Positions 39,501 through 58,143 of a DNA stretch of 64,000 nucleotides are shown one piece after another. The DNA comes from a virus: positions 1-64,000 of the IMG/VR virus record IMGVR_UViG_3300025012_000055; one strand, 5' to 3'. A program made the position numbers and the translations under genes. The notes under the pieces are model-generated. The model was not told the origin of the DNA. It did not search any database and saw only the letters and a program-made list of their open reading frames with translations. Positions within the stretch are counted from its first letter, which is position 1. Each line of letters begins with the position of its first letter.

Positions 39501-39532
39501 CTTGTTTATTTCAATTATTTTACTTACCTTTG
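39501..39532 (+). promoter_or_regulatory. sigma-A early promoter
   Basis: CTTG-N20-TACCTTTG. Confidence 0.75.
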
Positions 39533-39690
39533 TATTCTAAAACTTAAAATAAAATGGAAGATCAATTACTAAAGAAAAATTAATCAAGGATAGTATTGAA
39601 AGAAATTTTTGGGTTATTTATCCTGCATGGAAATTTACTCAAAATAAAGATAAACTATTGAATTTAATTCCTGAATATCCAGAATAAATT

Positions 39691-52261: not shown

Positions 52262-52329
52262 ATTGACTTTTTAATTTATTTTATTTATATTTGTAATTTA
52301 GATTATATTTATAAACAAGTTCTTTGAAA
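52262..52329 (+). promoter_or_regulatory. sigma-A promoter plus boxA-like GTTCTTTGAAA
   Basis: ATTG-N20-TATATTTG (52262-52293); boxA-like at 52319-52329. Confidence 0.65.
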
Positions 52330-52335
52330 TTAAAA

Positions 52336-52480
52336 GATATTATTTATTTAAGTGTTGGTCTTGGAATAATCCAGAAGTAATATAATAGGAGAAACTTAAT
52401 TGTGTTATCCCTTCCCATCAACCGTAGTACGTAGTATTACAACGAAGGATAAAAACACAGCTAAAATAAATAATTATATC
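52336..52480 (+). ncRNA. candidate structured RNA upstream of tmRNA
   Basis: End-to-end pairing plus nested stems 52401-52414/52444-52459 and 52424-52430/52434-52440. Confidence 0.45.
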
Positions 52481-52484
52481 ATAT

Positions 52485-52895
52485 GGGGATGACAGGCATT
52501 GACGTGATCAAAGTAGTCATAAAATATGTGTTTGGCATTCTGGAAAAGACAGAAGAATCGCTTAAATGGCGAATCAAACAAAGGACTCTCAAATGAGATT
52601 GCAAGGTTCTTGGTGTCAGATGAAAATCTGATTTTCAAAAATCAAGAAATTGAATTTGAAATTGCTTAACAAGGTTAAGTCAATTATATTGGAAACAGGA
52701 TAGAGTTAAACTGAATAATCGGGAACAGATTTTAACTGAACATGTTTGTATAATCCAAACAATAAAATAAATCCTGATTAGTTTAGGGTAAAAGTTTGGG
52801 AACGATTCTTTAAAAATTGAACAAAAAATAACACTAAAAAAATATTTTATGTTGAAAGATTAACGGACCCGGTTTTCGAATTACCGGCATCTCCA
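52485..52895 (+). ncRNA. ssrA: tmRNA
   Basis: GGGGATG/CATCTCC-A acceptor with G3-U, GACAGGCATTGAC 5' motif, T-arm-like CCGGT-TTTCGAATT-ACCGG, tag frame 52568-52669. Confidence 0.92.
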
Positions 52896-52964
52896 CTTTT
52901 TAATCCTTAACGATTAGGCTTGTTAGAGGTTTTTATTTAAAATAATTCACTTTTTATTGATAAT

Positions 52965-53552
52965 ATGAAAGTAGAACCAATATTAAATCAAATACTTGCA
53001 GAATCATCATTATCAAGAGTATGGAATCATACAAATAATGATGATACTTTTGGTATTATTTCTGCATTCAAATTAGATAATTATTGGGTTGAAAATATAA
53101 TTTTACATAGTAATTTAAAAAAAGAAATTAAAAGTAAAGGATATGGTTTCATAGAGTTAGATAGTGGATATAGTTATCTTGATAATACTAATGAGGAAAT
53201 ATCGGTTAGAGAAAGATCATATTTTATTCCAAAAATTACATTTAAAGATATTACTGAATTAGGTAAAAAATATGAACAAGAAACTATTATATTTAAAGAT
53301 AATGAATTTTTTATTTTAGTTAAACCAGATGGTACTATAGAAAAAACATTTTTAAAAGGAAACGGTTATAATTTTAAACCAGAGAATTTAAAAAACGCAT
53401 GGAGTCAATTTATTAGAAGTAAAAACAAAAATGCAATTAAAAAATTTACTTTTAATGTCCAAGAAAGAATTATACCATCAAGAACCGATTCTTATAAAAT
53501 GTTAGGAGAAAATAAAGGTTTAGCAAAAGTAAAATATATTAATTTATTTTAA
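52965..53552 (+). CDS. conserved phage hypothetical protein
   Basis: ESSLSRV..IISAF..ERSYF..LGKKYEQE pattern. Confidence 0.75.
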   Translation: MKVEPILNQILAESSLSRVWNHTNNDDTFGIISAFKLDNYWVENIILHSNLKKEIKSKGYGFIELDSGYSYLDNTNEEISVRERSYFIPKITFKDITELGKKYEQETIIFKDNEFFILVKPDGTIEKTFLKGNGYNFKPENLKNAWSQFIRSKNKNAIKKFTFNVQERIIPSRTDSYKMLGENKGLAKVKYINLF

Positions 53553-53558
53553 AATTTT

Positions 53559-54176
53559 ATGAATAATTTTTTAAAAAATTTTAGAAGATTATCTGGAATT
53601 AAAGAACTTTCATTAACTGAAGAATTTACTGGTTTCAAAAGAATTCATGTTTTAGAAACCGTTGGCAGAGGAATATCCTCTTTACAGCTTAACGGTATTT
53701 CTATTAACAGAGATAATTCAAAAGATAATGTAATAAATTATCAAATAAAAGAAGGAATATTAACAGAAGAAAAAGAATTTGTTTTCCCGGAAAATCAAAA
53801 AGGTGGAATTATTGTTTTTTCTATTGATGTTAATAAAAAGTTTGAATATAAAAATTTAATTGATAAAATTAAAGAATGGTTTAAACAAAAATATCAATCA
53901 TTATTAAACAGAATATTTAAAGATAAAAAATTATCAAAAATTATAAGTAAACATGAAGAAATAACTGGATTTAGCATCGGTAAATTTTTTAAAGGAAGAT
54001 ATAAATCTCCTAATGGAAAACATTATGATGAAACAAGTACATCAATTGAAATAATTGGTATTGGTTCTGAATTATTGGAAATTGTTGCATCAAAAATTGC
54101 TAGTGAATTTAATCAGGAAAGTGTATTAGTAAAAGATTATATAAAAAATGAAATATATTTAGCAAATAAAAAATAA
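53559..54176 (+). CDS. hypothetical protein
   Basis: FNQESVLVKD C-terminus. Confidence 0.75.
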   Translation: MNNFLKNFRRLSGIKELSLTEEFTGFKRIHVLETVGRGISSLQLNGISINRDNSKDNVINYQIKEGILTEEKEFVFPENQKGGIIVFSIDVNKKFEYKNLIDKIKEWFKQKYQSLLNRIFKDKKLSKIISKHEEITGFSIGKFFKGRYKSPNGKHYDETSTSIEIIGIGSELLEIVASKIASEFNQESVLVKDYIKNEIYLANKK

Positions 54177-54250
54177 TTGATAAATAATTTGGATATGTCA
54201 TTTATTTTACTTACCTTTGTATTTTAAAATTAAAATTAACTATTATTTTT

Positions 54251-54451
54251 ATGGATACAAATATAAAAGAACAAATTGATAATATGGATTATGAATCAAT
54301 GTTAAGATTATGGAGATTTAGTCCTGCTGGCCATTCATTATTTCAAGGAGAATCTGGTGAATATTTCAGTAAAAATATGAAAGAAAAACGTGATAAATTA
54401 CCAAATGAAGAACATCCAATCATATCAAAAAGAATAGGTTGGGAAAAATAA
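54251..54451 (+). CDS. small hypothetical early protein
   Basis: Follows promoter 54188-54219. Confidence 0.75.
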   Translation: MDTNIKEQIDNMDYESMLRLWRFSPAGHSLFQGESGEYFSKNMKEKRDKLPNEEHPIISKRIGWEK

Positions 54452-54462
54452 TTCATTTTATA

Positions 54463-54494
54463 CTTGTTTATTTTAATTATTTTACTTACTTTTG
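54463..54494 (+). promoter_or_regulatory. sigma-A promoter of tRNA operon 1
   Basis: CTTG-N20-TACTTTTG. Confidence 0.8.
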
Positions 54495-54518
54495 TATCTT
54501 GAAAGTATTTATAATAAA

Positions 54519-54590
54519 ATGAAAAACATAAATTTACATAATCTCCCACAGCTACCCAGTAATAAACATTGGGGTGGAAAACTTATGTAA
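54519..54590 (+). CDS. leader peptide 1 (MKNINLHNLPQLPSNKHWGGKLM)
   Basis: Short ORF between promoter and terminator; CTC CCA CAG CTA CCC run. Confidence 0.8.
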   Translation: MKNINLHNLPQLPSNKHWGGKLM

Positions 54591-54617
54591 AAAAATTAAA
54601 AAAATACAATAGATTAT

Positions 54618-54657
54618 AAACCCTGATGTTCAATAAAAAAGTCATCAGGGTTTTTTT
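54618..54657 (+). terminator. attenuator terminator 1
   Basis: AAACCCTGATG/CATCAGGGTTT stem plus T tract. Confidence 0.85.
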
Positions 54658-54675
54658 ATTGATAAAAAATTAAAA

Positions 54676-54749
54676 TATGGTGTTAGTTCAGAGGCAGAAC
54701 GCTACATTTGGGATGTAGAGGTCGAGATATCATAATTCTCACACCATAC
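54676..54749 (+). tRNA. tRNA-Pro(UGG)
   Basis: TATGGTG/CACCATA; CTACA-TTTGGGA-TGTAG; atypical T loop. Confidence 0.8.
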
Positions 54750-54765
54750 AAAAAAATTAAAAAAT

Positions 54766-54839
54766 ATTCCAGTATCCCAATTGGTAGAGGATATAGTATT
54801 AGAAACTATAAAGTGAGAGTTCGAATCTCTCCTGGAGTA
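54766..54839 (+). tRNA. tRNA-Leu(UAG), short variable arm
   Basis: ATAGT-ATTAGAA-ACTAT; GAGAG-TTCGAAT-CTCTC. Confidence 0.85.
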
Positions 54840-54840
54840 C

Positions 54841-54914
54841 TACCGGATCTTCTAATTTTGGCAGGAAAGCACCCTTTGAAGGTGATAATATAGGTTAGAT
54901 CCCTACTCTGGTAA
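54841..54914 (+). tRNA. tRNA-Gln(UUG)
   Basis: TACCGGA/TCTGGTA; CACC-CTTTGAA-GGTG. Confidence 0.8.
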
Positions 54915-54944
54915 CTACAAAAATTAAAAAAATATTAGATAATA

Positions 54945-54976
54945 CTTGTTTATTTCAATTATTTTACTTACCTTTG
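54945..54976 (+). promoter_or_regulatory. sigma-A early promoter
   Basis: CTTG-N20-TACCTTTG. Confidence 0.8.
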
Positions 54977-55018
54977 TATTCTAAATATCTGAATTAATAA
55001 CTTAAAAACCTAAAAAAA

Positions 55019-55225
55019 ATGAAAGATAAACCACAAAAGCCGAAATTGAATACTACTGTTGTTGGCGGTAGTTTTTATTGGGTTAGACCATTTCAAGGAG
55101 ATGAATTTGAACCTGCAAAGGCTAGAGATAGATATGAGAATGGAGAGCTATATTTCTGCTTTACAAACGGTAGTGTGTTGGAAGTAGAGCGCGCTTGGGA
55201 GGTTGAGCCATTAAATTTCAGCTAA
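55019..55225 (+). CDS. small cassette-like hypothetical protein
   Basis: ORF ending at GCTAAC. Confidence 0.65.
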   Translation: MKDKPQKPKLNTTVVGGSFYWVRPFQGDEFEPAKARDRYENGELYFCFTNGSVLEVERAWEVEPLNFS

Positions 55226-55280
55226 CGGTTTTGGGATTGCTGTCAGGTTTCTTACGGATTAACAACTAAAATATAATTAT

Positions 55281-55520
55281 ATGAACGAAGAATTAAGAGT
55301 GATATCACAAAGCTATTGCGGAATGACACCGAAAGATAAAGGATGCAAAACTTGGGCTGAGATGCAACAGAAAATGGCAGATGAATTGGAATGTGTAGTA
55401 AAAAATTATATTGTCCAAGCAAATGTTAGCGGACACTTGTGCCAATGTGGAAATCCGATTGCCAGAACGGAGTGCGATGATTGTTTAGACAATAGAATTA
55501 GATGCAAGTTAGAAAATTAG
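55281..55520 (+). CDS. small cassette-like zinc-finger protein
   Basis: CQCG..CDDC. Confidence 0.65.
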   Translation: MNEELRVISQSYCGMTPKDKGCKTWAEMQQKMADELECVVKNYIVQANVSGHLCQCGNPIARTECDDCLDNRIRCKLEN

Positions 55521-55602
55521 GTACAATTTCCGCTAACGCATCGGAGATTTATGAAGGATTTTTTACGACTTAAACTACAAATTTAAAAATATAAAAAACA
55601 CA

Positions 55603-55845
55603 ATGACAAAAGAAGAATTGATTACAAAGCAACAACTGGAAATAGAGCAGTATCAAATTGCAATAGAAGAAAACAAAAAACTGCTGAAAAAGATAAAACT
55701 AAATTTCATTGCGATAGGGATGCCGTTAAATGATAACCTATTGCAATTTGATAAGAAGCAGATAAAATGGTGCTTGGAAACATTAGAAATGATTGAACAA
55801 ATTAACTGTACTGTGCTTGACTATGAGGGTGTGTGGGCGGGTTAA
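55603..55845 (+). CDS. small hypothetical protein
   Basis: ORF. Confidence 0.7.
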   Translation: MTKEELITKQQLEIEQYQIAIEENKKLLKKIKLNFIAIGMPLNDNLLQFDKKQIKWCLETLEMIEQINCTVLDYEGVWAG

Positions 55846-55881
55846 AAAGTTTGCGTATAAGTAGGGGATTGTCGCAATATT

Positions 55882-55913
55882 ATTGATTTTTTAAAATATT
55901 TTACTTATATTTG
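55882..55913 (+). promoter_or_regulatory. sigma-A promoter of tRNA operon 2
   Basis: ATTG-N20-TATATTTG. Confidence 0.8.
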
Positions 55914-55938
55914 TACTTTGAAACTATTTATTAAGAAA

Positions 55939-56019
55939 ATGAAAAACTGGTTAAACATATCAATTCATAGTAATAGTCGTAATATTATACGACCTGGAAG
56001 GGGTATGTTTATACAATAA
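55939..56019 (+). CDS. leader peptide 2 (MKNWLNISIHSNSRNIIRPGRGMFIQ)
   Basis: Short ORF between promoter and terminator; codons match the downstream tRNAs. Confidence 0.82.
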   Translation: MKNWLNISIHSNSRNIIRPGRGMFIQ

Positions 56020-56038
56020 TCATTTTTAAAAGATATAT

Positions 56039-56075
56039 AAAAAACCCCTTGGATTAAGTTTTTAAGGGGTTTTTT
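56039..56075 (+). terminator. attenuator terminator 2
   Basis: AAAAAACCCCTT/AAGGGGTTTTTT. Confidence 0.85.
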
Positions 56076-56080
56076 AATTT

Positions 56081-56154
56081 TGGTCTGTAACTCAGAAGTT
56101 TAGAGTGCCAAGCCGTTAACTTGGAAGCCGGGATGGCAGAATTCCCCAGACCAG
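56081..56154 (+). tRNA. tRNA-Asn(GUU)
   Basis: TGGTCTG/CAGACCA; CCAAG-CCGTTAA-CTTGG; atypical T loop. Confidence 0.8.
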
Positions 56155-56170
56155 CTGGAAATATAAAAAA

Positions 56171-56254
56171 GGAAAAGGACTGGCATGGACGAAGAGATAG
56201 TCTTGAAAACTATTGTGTGTAAAAACATCGTGAGTTCGATTCTCACCTTTTCCG
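56171..56254 (+). tRNA. tRNA-Ser(UGA)
   Basis: GGAAAAG/CTTTTCC-G; ATAGT-CTTGAAA-ACTAT; long variable arm. Confidence 0.85.
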
Positions 56255-56268
56255 CTTTTTTAAAAAAC

Positions 56269-56339
56269 AGGTTCTTGGTGTAATGGCAGCATCTGAAATT
56301 CCAAACTTCAGGGTATGGGTTCGAATCCTATAAAACTTG
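56269..56339 (+). tRNA. tRNA-Trp(CCA)
   Basis: TTCCAAA loop; ATGGG-TTCGAAT-CCTAT; mismatches in stems. Confidence 0.75.
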
Positions 56340-56340
56340 C

Positions 56341-56426
56341 GGAAAATAAACCAATCAGGGTATTGGGCCTATTTGCTAAATAGTGCGTTCTGTAAAAAGA
56401 ATGTGTTTCAAATACTCTGTCCTCCG
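56341..56426 (+). tRNA. tRNA-Ser(GCU), degenerate
   Basis: TTGCTAA loop in CTAT/ATAG stem, long variable arm; weak acceptor and T stems. Confidence 0.6.
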
Positions 56427-56437
56427 CAAAATTATAT

Positions 56438-56510
56438 TGACCAGTAGCTCAATTGGTGGAGCAACATTCTGATGAAATGAAGGTCGAAGGTTCAAATCCT
56501 TCCTGGTCAA
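56438..56510 (+). tRNA. tRNA-Ile(GAU)
   Basis: TGACCAG/CTGGTCA; CATT-CTGATGA-AATG; GAAGG-TTCAAAT-CCTTC. Confidence 0.85.
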
Positions 56511-56519
56511 CAAAAAACT

Positions 56520-56592
56520 ATTTTCTTAGTTTAACTGGATAAAATATTTGGCTACGAACCAAAAGATGAGAGTTCGAATCTTTCAGAAAATA
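56520..56592 (+). tRNA. tRNA-Arg(ACG)
   Basis: ATTTTCT/AGAAAAT; TTTGG-CTACGAA-CCAAA. Confidence 0.88.
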
Positions 56593-56607
56593 CATTATAA
56601 TTAATAT

Positions 56608-56682
56608 GGTGCTATTGTTGTAAATTGGTGAGCATAGAAAACTGTGAATTTTCAGGTAAAGGTTCAATTCCTTTATGGCACC
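56608..56682 (+). tRNA. tRNA-His(GUG) with encoded G-1
   Basis: G-GTGCTAT/ATGGCAC-C; GAAAA-CTGTGAA-TTTTC. Confidence 0.88.
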
Positions 56683-56690
56683 CAATAATC

Positions 56691-57383
56691 TTAATTTAAT
56701 AATTCAAAAACTTCTTTTATTCCTTCACTAGCTTTTTTATTAATATAAGTAATTTCCATTCCAATTTTACTTAAACTTTTAACTGGGTTTGGATCAATAA
56801 AAAATACTTCACAAGATAATTTTATATAAGTTAACATTTGAAAACAATAATGGATAAATAAAGAAGTTCCAATTATTATTAAATAATCACATTTTTCAAT
56901 TGTTTTATATGATTCTTCAATATTACAAGGATATTCCCCAAACCAAACAACATGAGGTCTTAATTGTGAGCCATTTTCACATTTATCACCCAACTTTATA
57001 TCATTATAACCACAATCATATATTAAATCTTCATCTGATGAGCTTTGAGATTTTGTAAGTTCCCCATGAATGTGAATAACATTTGAAGAGCCACCCCTTT
57101 CATGTAAATTATCAACATTTTGAGTTATCACGGTAACATCAAAATTATTTTCAAGTTCTGCAATTAATTTATGCGCCAGATTTGGTTTTACATTTTCCAG
57201 TTGCCTTCTTCTTTCGTTATAAAAATCTAAAACTTTTTGTTTATCTTTGTGCCATGCACTTATTGTTGCAACATCATCTATTTTATGGTTTAACCATAAA
57301 CCATTTTTTCCTGTCCTGAATGTTGGGATGCCAGATTCCTCACTTACGCCCGCACCAGTAAAAACAACTATTTTCTTTTTCAT
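56691..57383 (-). CDS. cobB: Sir2-family NAD-dependent deacylase
   Basis: TGAGVSEESGIPTFR, TQNVDNLHE, HG, RPHVVWFGE, IGTS. Confidence 0.95.
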   Translation of the reverse strand: MKKKIVVFTGAGVSEESGIPTFRTGKNGLWLNHKIDDVATISAWHKDKQKVLDFYNERRRQLENVKPNLAHKLIAELENNFDVTVITQNVDNLHERGGSSNVIHIHGELTKSQSSSDEDLIYDCGYNDIKLGDKCENGSQLRPHVVWFGEYPCNIEESYKTIEKCDYLIIIGTSLFIHYCFQMLTYIKLSCEVFFIDPNPVKSLSKIGMEITYINKKASEGIKEVFELLN

Positions 57384-57444
57384 TTATTTGTTTTTTTAAT
57401 AAATATTTATAAATAAGAATATATTTATATAATGATATAATAAC

Positions 57445-58143
57445 ATGAAAGATCAAATATCCAGAATGAAAGAATTGATTAATTATAATATTAATTATGG
57501 TTATATTAATGAAGAAATGGAAACTTCTGATAATTTTATAAATAATACATTTCAAGAATATAAAGAAAAAAATGCAATTGCAGTTGAGGTTAGCATTGAT
57601 TCAGAAAATGATGTTGATTACAGATTAGCACTTATATTAAGATTTACAAATGTTAGTGGATATGATGAATTAGTATTTTATTTTTCATTAATAGATAAAA
57701 ATAATCAGTTTGTAAAAGGAAAAGAAAGTATTTATAATAGAGAAGAAGCAAATAAATATTTACCAAAAAAATTACAAGGTAGTATTTCTTTTTTTACTAA
57801 ACTAAAAGAAATGTTTAAAAAATTAATAAATATGGAAACACCAGATATATTTTTTATGGAAACATATGAAGATTTTATAAGTGAAAGATTATTAAATCCT
57901 TATAGAAATTTAATTCCATTAATATTGGAAAATGGATATCTTTTGGAAAAAGAAGGAATATCCCATGATAAAAAGAAATATTATTGGAAATTTGTAAAAA
58001 AAACAAATCAACAAATAAAAGAAGATAAGGAATTTGAATATTTTATAAATAATTTTAAAAAAGATGATGAATATTGGGAAAAATTTAATAAAGAATCAAG
58101 AATAATTATTGAGAAAATGTATGGAAATAAAAAAATTATTTAA
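57445..58143 (+). CDS. hypothetical protein (possible internal virion protein)
   Basis: ISRMKELI N-terminal motif; paralog at 27542. Confidence 0.75.
   Translation: MKDQISRMKELINYNINYGYINEEMETSDNFINNTFQEYKEKNAIAVEVSIDSENDVDYRLALILRFTNVSGYDELVFYFSLIDKNNQFVKGKESIYNREEANKYLPKKLQGSISFFTKLKEMFKKLINMETPDIFFMETYEDFISERLLNPYRNLIPLILENGYLLEKEGISHDKKKYYWKFVKKTNQQIKEDKEFEYFINNFKKDDEYWEKFNKESRIIIEKMYGNKKII

Follow-up and report, generated by a model that had tools for sequence, protein, structure and literature searches.

In the enterobacterial amino-acid operons, attenuation involves a promoter-proximal short ORF rich in regulatory codons (the trpL, hisL, pheL, leuL and thr/ilvGMEDA leaders), overlapping 1:2, 2:3 and 3:4 hairpins and a terminator, and a stalled ribosome leads to the antiterminator. 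Classical leaders have long single-residue runs, several amino acids are represented per leader in thr and ilv, and the regulated products are enzymes. In E. coli pheST (pheM leader), attenuation is known to act on a part of the translation machinery devoted to the amino acid that is sensed; there the product is a synthetase protein, a single amino acid is sensed and the locus is chromosomal. In T-box leaders, a specific tRNA is sensed via its cognate codon and a terminator/antiterminator switch precedes genes serving that tRNA, the uncharged tRNA being bound directly by a conserved scaffold without translation. In M. tuberculosis, cleavage of tRNA-Cys by VapC4 is reportedly sensed through small ORFs (Barth et al. 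2021, PNAS), the loss of a specific tRNA being read as ribosome stalling at the cognate codons. In the lambda PR'-6S RNA-tR' region, a promoter-proximal terminator about 150-200 nt on gives a short transcript unless read-through is licensed by Q, a DNA-bound protein loaded at the promoter.

Whether phage tRNAs serve codon compensation or escape from tRNA-cleaving defences has been debated for decades, and to our knowledge the control of their expression has hardly been addressed. Phage tRNAs have been described as a counter-defence that replaces tRNAs cut by host nucleases (PMC10264068, PMC12409363). Neither that work nor the VapC4 system includes a phage attenuator before tRNA genes, and a literature search found no description of leader-peptide attenuation for tRNA genes.

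The current analysis concerns the first 64 kb (the window) of a 91,380-base IMG/VR virus record from an uncultured giant phage. The original prediction held that the two tRNA clusters in the window share one layout, and this proved correct; a third cluster, 25 kb past the window, has the same layout. Each unit consists of a Bacteroidota-type promoter, a 23-26-codon ORF, a strong intrinsic terminator and, 5-20 nt further on, the tRNAs, with about 120 nt between promoter and terminator in all three units of the record (Table 1). The units are likely (probability about 0.8) to be ribosome-mediated, leader-peptide transcription attenuators with tRNAs as the regulated products, and a tRNA block is probably made only when ribosomes slow on its codons. 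This interpretation is argued for by the computed anatomy, by the covariation of leaders with tRNAs and its dependence on reading frame, and by predicted alternative pairings. Translation of the leaders, its coupling to transcription, the in-vivo direction of the response and the physiological trigger are all inferred; we know of no study that has established transcription-translation coupling in Bacteroidota.

Table 1. Coordinates of the features of the tRNA units (pairings and energies are predictions)
Feature	Position	Strand	Description
Promoter, unit 1	54464..54496	+	TTG 54464-54466, 20-nt spacer, TACTTTTG 54487-54494; block 54480-54496
TATTTATAA box, unit 1	54506..54514	+	between promoter and leader ATG
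Leader ORF 1	54519..54590	+	23 aa, MKNINLHNLPQLPSNKHWGGKLM
Putative regulatory run LPQLP, leader 1	54543-54557	+	CTC CCA CAG CTA CCC
Segment 2, unit 1	54566..54576	+	ACATTGGGGTG; may pair with the LPQLP region (1:2) or the terminator 5' arm (2:3, -12.1 kcal/mol)
Terminator 1	54619..54657	+	10-bp stem AACCCTGATG/CATCAGGGTT + T7, -13.7 kcal/mol
tRNA cluster 1	54677..54915	+	Pro(UGG) 54677-54748, Leu(UAG) 54766-54840, Gln(UUG) 54841-54915
Promoter, unit 2	55883..55915	+	TTG 55883-55885, 20-nt spacer, TATATTTG 55906-55913; block 55899-55915
TATTTATTA box, unit 2	55925..55933	+	recurrence of the box across units
Leader ORF 2	55939..56019	+	26 aa, MKNWLNISIHSNSRNIIRPGRGMFIQ
Segment 2, unit 2	55992..56005	+	ACCTGGAAGGGGTA; may pair with upstream AAACATATC...TTC (1:2) or terminator arm AACCCCTTGG (2:3, -12.2 kcal/mol)
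Terminator 2	56043..56075	+	AACCCCTTGGA/TTTAAGGGGTT + T6, 5'-side A tract, -13.5 kcal/mol
tRNA cluster 2, first part	56081..56427	+	Asn(GUU) 56081-56154, Ser(UGA) 56171-56255, Trp(CCA) 56269-56340, Ser(GCU) 56341-56427
tRNA cluster 2, remainder	cluster spans 56081..56683	+	Ile(GAU), Arg(ACG), His(GUG)
Terminator 3	89065-89096	+	-14.0 kcal/mol; ahead of tRNA cluster 3, outside the window

The promoters share a conserved 17-nt block, TTTTACTTAC(C/T)TTTGTA, that contains TAnnTTTG and has a TTG 20 nt upstream. At least 12 copies of the block lie upstream of genes on the + strand, and a scan that allowed up to three mismatches gave 22 matches (6.1 expected). TTG/TAnnTTTG was taken to be the Bacteroidota sigma-A consensus, and the recurrence of the block ahead of both window clusters agrees with the sigma-A promoters originally proposed there. 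The distance from the block to the next ATG in the tRNA units equals that at ordinary genes. Downstream of the promoter, a TATTTATAA-type box was present in all three tRNA units and also at 52306; in the 60-83 kb region the box precedes many genes, there with a different upstream context, and it may be a second, phage-specific promoter element. A sigma-70 consensus scan was uninformative in this AT-rich DNA (88 matches, 76 expected), and the terminator rule of that scan overlooked terminator 1.

When hairpin-plus-U-tract sites on the + strand of the entire record are ranked by strength, the three unit terminators fall within the top four. They are predicted GC-stem hairpins (-13.5 to -14.0 kcal/mol) with T6-T7, and the first tRNA begins 19 nt (cluster 1) or 5 nt (cluster 2) past the U tract. 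ARAGORN with default settings called 5 of the 10 tRNAs of clusters 1 and 2; the calls for tRNA-Pro and tRNA-Asn were based on Infernal scores of 49 and 39 bits, and tRNA-Ser(GCU), which has a weak acceptor stem, is a weak call made only at the ARAGORN 85% threshold. The tRNA-Asn has an odd C33 and the tRNA-Pro an aberrant T loop. A phage tmRNA-like gene neighbours the tRNA units, and unit 3 is interrupted by a TnpB element. Compared with GenBank phages at the DNA level, 54200-56700 gave generic tRNA matches only.

The leader ORFs of units 1, 2 and 3 have 23, 26 and 26 codons, and their stops lie 20-30 nt ahead of the terminators. An ORF of such length ending within 45 nt of the terminator was found in 6-15% of dinucleotide shuffles per unit in this genome. 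The predicted short ORFs are present, but the MKN start that was proposed as their signature is not diagnostic, because ATGAAAAA starts are common after the same promoter type. The claim that each leader is enriched in codons read by its own cluster held to different degrees, strongly for leader 2, moderately for leader 1 and not at all for leader 3. In leader 2, the tRNAs of cluster 2 would read 13 of the 25 codons when strict wobble rules are applied (5.4 expected, P = 9e-4), and all seven of the cluster's tRNAs are represented, as had been claimed. The LPQLP run of leader 1, ahead of tRNA-Pro, -Leu and -Gln, is real, and a five-codon CTN/CCN/CAR run occurred in none of 21,780 22-codon windows from the phage's own genes. 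Under strict wobble, however, leader 1 has only three matches to cluster 1 (P = 0.13); CTC and CCC would count only if U34 tRNAs read C-ending codons. Leader 1 also has nine residues that match cluster 2. Leader 3 showed no enrichment for the adjacent Asp and Phe tRNAs (3 matches, 2.8 expected) and is abundant in Thr and ATA-Ile codons, the tRNAs for which are absent from the fragment. The true assignment of the three leaders to the three clusters was the best of the six possible pairings.

Usable relatives were obtained through the SIR2 neighbour; their tRNAs are not adjacent to SIR2 and were located contig-wide. Searches via the neighbouring 205-aa protein and via the tail sheath found no relatives, and the neighbouring 232-aa protein led to one related contig, which has one tRNA, under a separate promoter and lacking an attenuator. 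An IMG/VR pattern scan (promoter, 100-130 nt, AAAAMCCC) was rejected, as it gave five chance matches with no tRNAs. In eight related AT-rich giant-phage contigs, 17 further units were found: 17 of the 96 tRNA cluster starts in the relatives' tRNA regions have a terminator (dG -9 to -20 kcal/mol), and in 16 of them the T run stops 1-27 nt short of the first tRNA. A short ORF with its stop 10-35 nt before the terminator is present in 16 of these 17 units, and the leaders are about 24-37 aa long where the start is clear. Overall, 20 of 21 units have the short ORF; its rate in shuffled sequence is 5-17% per unit. Sampling of the tRNA regions of three other tRNA-rich contigs (G011, G013 and G019) revealed no such units, so the design is lineage-restricted.

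Covariation of leader codons with tRNA content, the test by which the original prediction could have failed, was strongly positive. The 16 non-redundant units examined came from this phage and seven related contigs. Matches to the unit's own cluster accounted for 166 of 468 leader residues, compared with 94.4 ± 11 when leaders and clusters were paired by permutation (none of 200,000 permutations attained 166), and strict-wobble codon matches numbered 143, compared with 75 ± 10. The permutation z was 6.5-7.2, a significance that is inflated to some extent, the units of related phages being not fully independent. The relatives alone gave 139 matches (79.8 ± 10.3 under permutation, 0 of 200,000). 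The match is specific to the reading frame, with 143 strict codon matches in frame, 51 in the +1 frame and 51 in the +2 frame. Examples include 1) an Asp/Asp/Pro/Gln cluster with the leader ..QQPQDQD.., 2) a Gln/Asp/Pro cluster with ..PQPQDQDP.., 3) a Pro/Pro/Arg/Cys cluster with ..ECPRPEAC.., 4) a lone tRNA-Gln with ..YQQLQQQQ.. and 5) a ten-tRNA cluster, all nine amino acids of which occur in its leader, where 23 of 31 residues match.

Mutually exclusive hairpins, also part of the original prediction, were obtained by folding for all three leaders of this phage. Segment 2, located 7-25 nt ahead of the leader stop, may pair upstream to form a 1:2 anti-antiterminator, predicted in all three, or with the terminator 5' arm (Table 1; the 2:3 duplex of unit 3 has -10.1 kcal/mol). 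When compared with shuffles, the antiterminators of units 1 and 2 were matched in 0 of 300 and at p = 0.047, respectively, and that of unit 3 was marginal (p = 0.09). Equilibrium MFE folding of whole leaders gave the terminator in every case; the terminator always wins thermodynamically, so a switch must be kinetic. Equilibrium folding therefore cannot test it; instead, nascent RNA was folded in the presence of a ribosome mask. With the A site at about codons 3-13, the 2:3 pairing formed in all three leaders, whereas with the ribosome at later codons or the stop, or with untranslated RNA, there was no 2:3 pairing. The predicted polarity, in which a stall at early codons yields the antiterminator, is as first proposed.

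Among all units, complementarity between the 3' part of the ORF and the terminator 5' arm exceeded that of dinucleotide shuffles (mean z -2.2). The antiterminator had an empirical p < 0.05 in 10 of 20 units, with 0 of 300 shuffles as good in six, and in several units the complementarity was no better than in shuffles. Antiterminator-permissive positions showed an excess of codons matched to tRNAs (odds ratio 2.1, p = 6e-4). The 1:2 hairpin is missing from most units of the related phages, and the predicted antiterminators of many relatives fold with no ribosome present; the design is therefore not uniform.

These features suggest the following mechanism. Transcription would begin at a promoter recognized by the host polymerase and, about 20 nt on, the 23-26-codon ORF would be translated, its early and middle codons being those of the downstream tRNAs. 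If these are decoded quickly, the ribosome would reach and mask the G-rich segment 2 near the 3' end of the ORF, the terminator hairpin would form and transcription would end 5-20 nt short of the first tRNA. If decoding is slow, because there is little usable cognate tRNA for the demand, the ribosome would stall upstream and leave segment 2 free to pair with the terminator 5' arm; this antiterminator would allow RNA polymerase to enter the tRNA genes. Where the leader RNA of this phage is not translated, segment 1 would fold on segment 2 and termination would follow, as in the trp leader. The loop would thereby be closed: demand would switch each tRNA block on, and the build-up of its own tRNAs would switch it off again.

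The units share the short ORF, the overlapping hairpins and the terminator with the amino-acid operon attenuators, and the several amino acids per leader with thr and ilv. In contrast to those operons, the regulated products are tRNAs, so feedback on the sensed decoding speed would be direct. The phage leaders represent up to 9-10 amino acids, most of them by one or a few codons and not by long single-residue runs, the exception being the QQLQQQQ leader of the lone tRNA-Gln unit. The units are also phage-encoded, reside in Bacteroidota-type AT-rich genomes and, in many relatives, lack the 1:2 hairpin. They differ from pheST in controlling tRNAs, whereas their similarity to the VapC4 system lies in the proposed reading of tRNA loss as ribosome stalling. 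As in lambda, a terminator lies close to the promoter, but here the promoter type is common to many ordinary genes and the leader carries a codon-matched ORF.

The units might be no switch at all: promoter, short ORF and terminator could be a small gene in their own right, for a micropeptide or small RNA, or could act as an insulator, and the tRNAs could arise from constitutive leakage through the terminator or with the aid of a phage antitermination factor, as for lambda 6S RNA and Q. The strong terminators, always favoured at equilibrium, would fit, as would antiterminators at chance level in some units, the lack of a codon match in leader 3 and the relative G001, where a short ORF after a similar promoter has no co-directional tRNA downstream. 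This explanation is nevertheless improbable; it leaves unexplained why the make-up of a leader varies with the tRNAs downstream of it, why the match is specific to one frame and why the matched codons lie upstream of a segment complementary to the terminator arm. It is far less probable still that the leader codons, which do display the cognate codons of the downstream tRNAs, bind the anticodons directly and set the choice between terminator and antiterminator without translation, although T-box leaders are known to use such pairing. The match is confined to a single frame (143 versus 51), which starts at an ATG spaced from the promoter as usual and ends shortly ahead of the terminator, and the leaders have no conserved structured scaffold in common. 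A cmscan of 53500-57500 with all Rfam families (E <= 1) found no T-box (stem I specifier loop, T-box sequence) or other riboswitch family.

If the units are attenuators, the same machine could respond to several signals. We place at close to even odds that the signal is amino-acid starvation or tRNA charging, or late-phase timing, in which the tRNAs would be timed to AT-rich phage mRNAs that raise codon demand, rather than destruction of tRNAs by defence nucleases. Charged-tRNA levels are the signal of classical leader attenuators, leaders that span up to 9-10 amino acids fit general supply balancing better than a single nuclease target, and the leader is preceded, downstream of the promoter, by a second box of late type, TATTTATAA. 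However, amino-acid starvation is not relieved by extra tRNA, and sequence alone does not discriminate among the candidate signals. More doubtful is the view of the units as a per-codon tRNA homeostat that doubles as a counter-defence sensor of tRNA removal by an anticodon nuclease or tRNA-targeting toxin, an anti-defence role and link to defence that we infer. Stalls on the matching codons of a 'checklist' leader would then switch on exactly the block with nuclease-resistant replacement tRNAs; C33 of tRNA-Asn and the T loop of tRNA-Pro could be part of that resistance, and the units, together with the tmRNA-like gene, might constitute a self-regulating translation-rescue island.

If leader-peptide attenuation of the tRNA units is correct, tRNAs could be assigned to one regulatory unit by inspection of the DNA, and a leader may point to lost members of a cluster, for example in the TnpB-split unit 3. 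The units would also represent compact, programmable parts that sense decoding speed. Leader-peptide attenuation would be extended from enzymes to tRNA genes and to the phages of Bacteroidota, and the phage tRNA supply would be regulated by demand, block by block.

Both tRNA clusters in the window had the anatomy of the original prediction, namely a promoter block, a short leader ORF, a hairpin terminator and tRNAs starting 19 nt (unit 1) or 5 nt (unit 2) after the end of the U tract (table). When + strand terminators were ranked over the whole record, both fell in the top four by strength, and another of the four belonged to a further unit, unit 3, beyond the window, with the order promoter, ORF MKQITTYFGGNGDGTTDAITIMARLC, terminator, tRNA-Asp and tRNA-Phe. 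Dinucleotide shuffles yielded an ORF of such size and position in 6-15% of cases per unit. The anatomy is confirmed as non-random, because units 1 and 2 and the outlying unit 3 repeat one arrangement, each with a promoter-to-terminator spacing of about 120 nt. Outside the promoter and the terminator, the only parts that can be aligned, the three units share no scaffold.

Features of the tRNA units and neighboring elements (window coordinates unless stated)
Feature	Position	Strand	Details
Promoter block, unit 1	54480-54496		
Leader ORF 1	54519-54590		23 codons
Terminator 1	54619-54657		GC-stem hairpin + U tract, -13.7 kcal/mol
tRNA cluster 1	54677-54915		Pro(UGG), Leu(UAG), Gln(UUG); Infernal + ARAGORN
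tRNA-Pro(UGG)	54677-54748		
Promoter block, unit 2	55899-55915		
Leader ORF 2	55939-56019		26 codons
Terminator 2	56043-56075		GC-stem hairpin + U tract, -13.5 kcal/mol
tRNA cluster 2	56081-56683		Asn(GUU), Ser(UGA), Trp, Ser(GCU), Ile(GAU), Arg(ACG), His(GUG); Infernal + ARAGORN
tRNA-Asn(GUU)	56081-56154		
Terminator, unit 3	89065-89096	+	beyond window
TnpB gene	genome 89283-90512 (L015:1594-2823, this record)	minus	past window end
tmRNA-like gene	52485-52898		with upstream region, 52279-52898
Promoter-plus-TATTTATAA arrangement	52279, 52306		upstream of tmRNA-like gene
Promoter-block copy with short frame	39518-39620		
Second promoter-like motif	60339, 62330, 62644, 62682; genome 64584, 66252, 72322, 79251, 81765, 83133		
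Region around the tRNA of closest relative	L012:1380-1660		tRNA of 113 nt
Lone tRNA-Gln(UUG), relative	L066, cluster start 2214	minus	

Default ARAGORN detected 5 of the 10 tRNAs of clusters 1 and 2; several were atypical and Ser(GCU) was a weak call. tRNA-Asn(GUU) has C at position 33 in place of the near-universal U (anticodon loop CCGUUAA), and the T loop of tRNA-Pro(UGG) is non-canonical (AUCAUAA); the two may be divergent, resistant or partly degenerate. An IS605-family TnpB gene (PF01385 + PF07282), with tRNA-Phe on one side and tRNA-Gly(UCC) and tRNA-Ala(UGC) on the other, apparently splits the third tRNA operon. A divergent tmRNA-like gene, preceded by the promoter-plus-TATTTATAA arrangement common to the tRNA units, scored 17.7 bits (E = 5e-5) with Rfam RF00023, below the gathering score of 47; both of its ends are similar to the GGGG...CCGGCAUCUCCAC acceptor region, and it received no ARAGORN call.

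The window covers the opening 64 kb of a 91,380-base IMG/VR record (GC about 25%). With a CheckV completeness of 28%, the record is only part of a giant-phage genome; it encodes a family-B DNA polymerase, a tail sheath, an SbcC-like ATPase, an AAA protein and a SIR2 homologue. The long promoter block, TTTTACTTAC(C/T)TTTGTA, contains TAnnTTTG with TTG 20 nt upstream and is present in at least 12 copies on the + strand (22 matches with up to three mismatches, 6.1 expected), with the start codons of ordinary genes 20-45 nt downstream. We take TTG/TAnnTTTG to be the Bacteroidota sigma-A promoter type, so the host is likely a member of the Bacteroidota. One perfect copy is followed by ATG GAA GAT CAA TTA CTA AAG AAA AAT TAA, past which the same frame remains open; a frameshift, a sequencing error, recoding or simply a very short ORF could account for this. 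A second promoter-like motif, TTTTT..AAC.TATATTTATAATAAAA, reminiscent of the T4 late promoter (TATAAATA), precedes numerous genes in the right-hand half of the sequence. In each of the three tRNA units the core of this motif, TATTTAT(A/T)A, is found downstream of the sigma-A-type promoter and ahead of the leader ATG, so that two promoters are possible per leader, each of which may act at its own time.

Enrichment of each leader in codons read by its own cluster, as had been proposed, was evaluated against phage codon usage compiled from 23,124 codons in 64 long ORFs. With strict wobble the claim held for leader 2 (13/25 matches, 5.4 expected, P = 9e-4), in which all seven cluster-2 tRNAs are indeed represented, and leader 1 had a non-significant excess (3/22, 1.3 expected, P = 0.13) and was enriched at the amino-acid level (7/22, 3.2 expected, P = 0.03). 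The L-P-Q-L-P run attributed to leader 1 is there as five consecutive codons, CTC CCA CAG CTA CCC, and such a run is absent from all 21,780 of the 22-codon control windows. Nine other residues of leader 1 (Asn, His, Ile, Ser, Trp) match cluster 2, 1.2 kb downstream, which may be mere AT-rich composition or a sign of read-through spanning both clusters. Leader 3 was not enriched in Asp and Phe codons (strict wobble 3/25, 2.8 expected, P = 0.55); counting the far-side Gly and Ala tRNAs gave nine amino-acid matches (4.9 expected, P = 0.04), and its five Thr and three ATA (Ile) codons have no partner tRNA on the fragment. None of the other 5 ways to pair leaders with clusters scored as high as the true one. 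Considered alone, the codon match in this genome is suggestive, not decisive.

Close relatives were scarce, and the SIR2 neighbor was used as a query, giving 28 loci in AT-rich giant-phage contigs. Nineteen of these records were scanned for tRNAs, which were found in 14, often more than 20 in each; 20 tRNA regions were fetched, tRNAs were called with default ARAGORN, and units were chosen by inspecting each cluster start, blind to codon content. At 17 of 96 cluster starts there was a strong terminator with a dG of -9 to -20 kcal/mol, in most cases of the AACCC...GGGTTTTTT type, its T run ending 1-27 nt ahead of the first tRNA in 16. A TAnnTTTG box lay roughly 120-250 nt upstream in most of the 17 units, and all but one contained a short ORF with its stop codon 10-35 nt before the terminator; ORFs with a clear start had about 24-37 codons.

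These leaders resemble inventories of the downstream tRNAs: ..NQQPQDQDR.. (Asp/Asp/Pro/Gln), ..PQPQDQDP.. (Gln/Asp/Pro), ..ECPRPEAC.. (Pro/Pro/Arg/Cys), MIPTTNININMNFDWAIKFAGNDYVDSNVIRM (Phe/Trp/Ile/Val/Ala/Asn/Asp/Asp/Lys/Tyr), MKTNNTNMMNLTLNVVNITLCNIR.. (Arg/Asn/Val/Ile/Cys/Thr/Ile/Leu) and ..YQQLQQQQFSD (a lone Gln). Locus L066, with a terminator and a leader ending ..MSTYQQLQQQQFSD upstream of a lone tRNA-Gln(UUG), is a single-amino-acid unit nearer to hisL or pheL than the multi-amino-acid "checklist" leaders are. The closest relative found (IMGVR_UViG_3300025012_000045) has one tRNA, enlarged by an insertion of some 40 nt, and its own TTG/TAnnTTTG promoter directly upstream, with neither leader nor terminator; a convergent promoter and 16-codon ORF face it.

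After removal of four redundant units (one identical copy, three close homologues), 16 remained, of which 3 belong to this genome and 13 are spread over 7 other contigs. Leader content covaried with the tRNA array: 166 of 468 residues matched their own cluster, compared with 94.4 ± 11.0 for permuted pairings (0/200,000, z 6.5), strict-wobble codon matches numbered 143 compared with 75.1 ± 10.2 (0/200,000, z 6.6) and the relatives alone gave 139 amino-acid matches compared with 79.8 ± 10.3 (0/200,000), P values that overstate independence because units of related phages share ancestry. Extending the clusters through the following tRNAs to the next unit raised z to 6.8-7.2. The 143 in-frame codon matches fell to 51 in both the +1 and +2 frames of the same nucleotides, a comparison that controls for base composition, not for shared ancestry. 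The diversity of leader and cluster combinations argues against one inherited coincidence.

The G-rich stretch in the 3' part of each ORF (segment 2) is complementary to the 5' arm of the terminator. The energy of this duplex (2:3) had a mean z of -2.2 relative to 300 dinucleotide shuffles, with empirical p < 0.05 in 10 of 20 units and 0/300 in six; the values were -12.1 kcal/mol (0/300), -12.2 kcal/mol (p = 0.047) and -10.1 kcal/mol (p = 0.09) for units 1, 2 and 3. One homologous pair of loci lends support to the putative pairing, the arm core and segment 2 being CGAACT and AGTTCG in L058 and CGAACC and GGTTCG in L061. Equilibrium folding of whole leaders gave the terminator every time, so any switch must be kinetic, and therefore the nascent RNA was folded up to the terminator loop while a 27-nt ribosome footprint was stepped codon by codon, a crude model. 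In untranslated leaders 1-3, segment 1, which holds the matched codons, is predicted to pair with segment 2 (1:2), leaving the terminator arm unpaired. With the A site at about codons 3-13, segment 2 would be released to pair with 6-9 bases of the arm, and with the ribosome past those codons or on the stop it would be covered. The mutually exclusive hairpins and the shared logic of dissimilar leaders that had been anticipated are thus reproduced in the model as a three-state switch like that of the trp leader. In most relatives the 1:2 hairpin is missing, and a simpler two-state device is predicted. Over all units, matched codons were over-represented at positions modeled as permitting antitermination (odds ratio 2.1, p = 6e-4).

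The best explanation is that ribosome-mediated attenuation governs tRNA transcription, each leader spelling out its own tRNA block in codons or amino acids, a reading drawn from sequence comparison and modeled folding. An unregulated small gene or an insulator, with no switch, would leave the frame-specific covariation unexplained. Direct sensing by a T-box-like element fails: the ORF and frame evidence contradicts it, the scaffold is absent, and no Rfam cis-regulatory family, T-box included, matched the region at E <= 1.

The physiological trigger of attenuation could be cleavage of host tRNA by defence nucleases, late-phase codon demand or amino-acid starvation. The sequence is compatible with each of these, so the anti-defence role originally proposed is a plausible candidate. 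Full-text literature searches, which covered phages and other systems, turned up no account of tRNA genes controlled by leader-peptide attenuation, in keeping with the remark in the original prediction that none was known, and the design is apparently unpublished. The nearest literature concerns phage tRNAs that serve counter-defence (PMC10264068, PMC12409363) and, in work cited within PMC10264068, small ORFs that sense tRNA-Cys cleavage in M. tuberculosis. Under attenuation, slow decoding of a leader would lead to read-through and more tRNAs of that block, and fast decoding to termination, which would place decoding capacity under negative feedback. The attenuation logic itself is classical; the regulated gene class and the host range are new.
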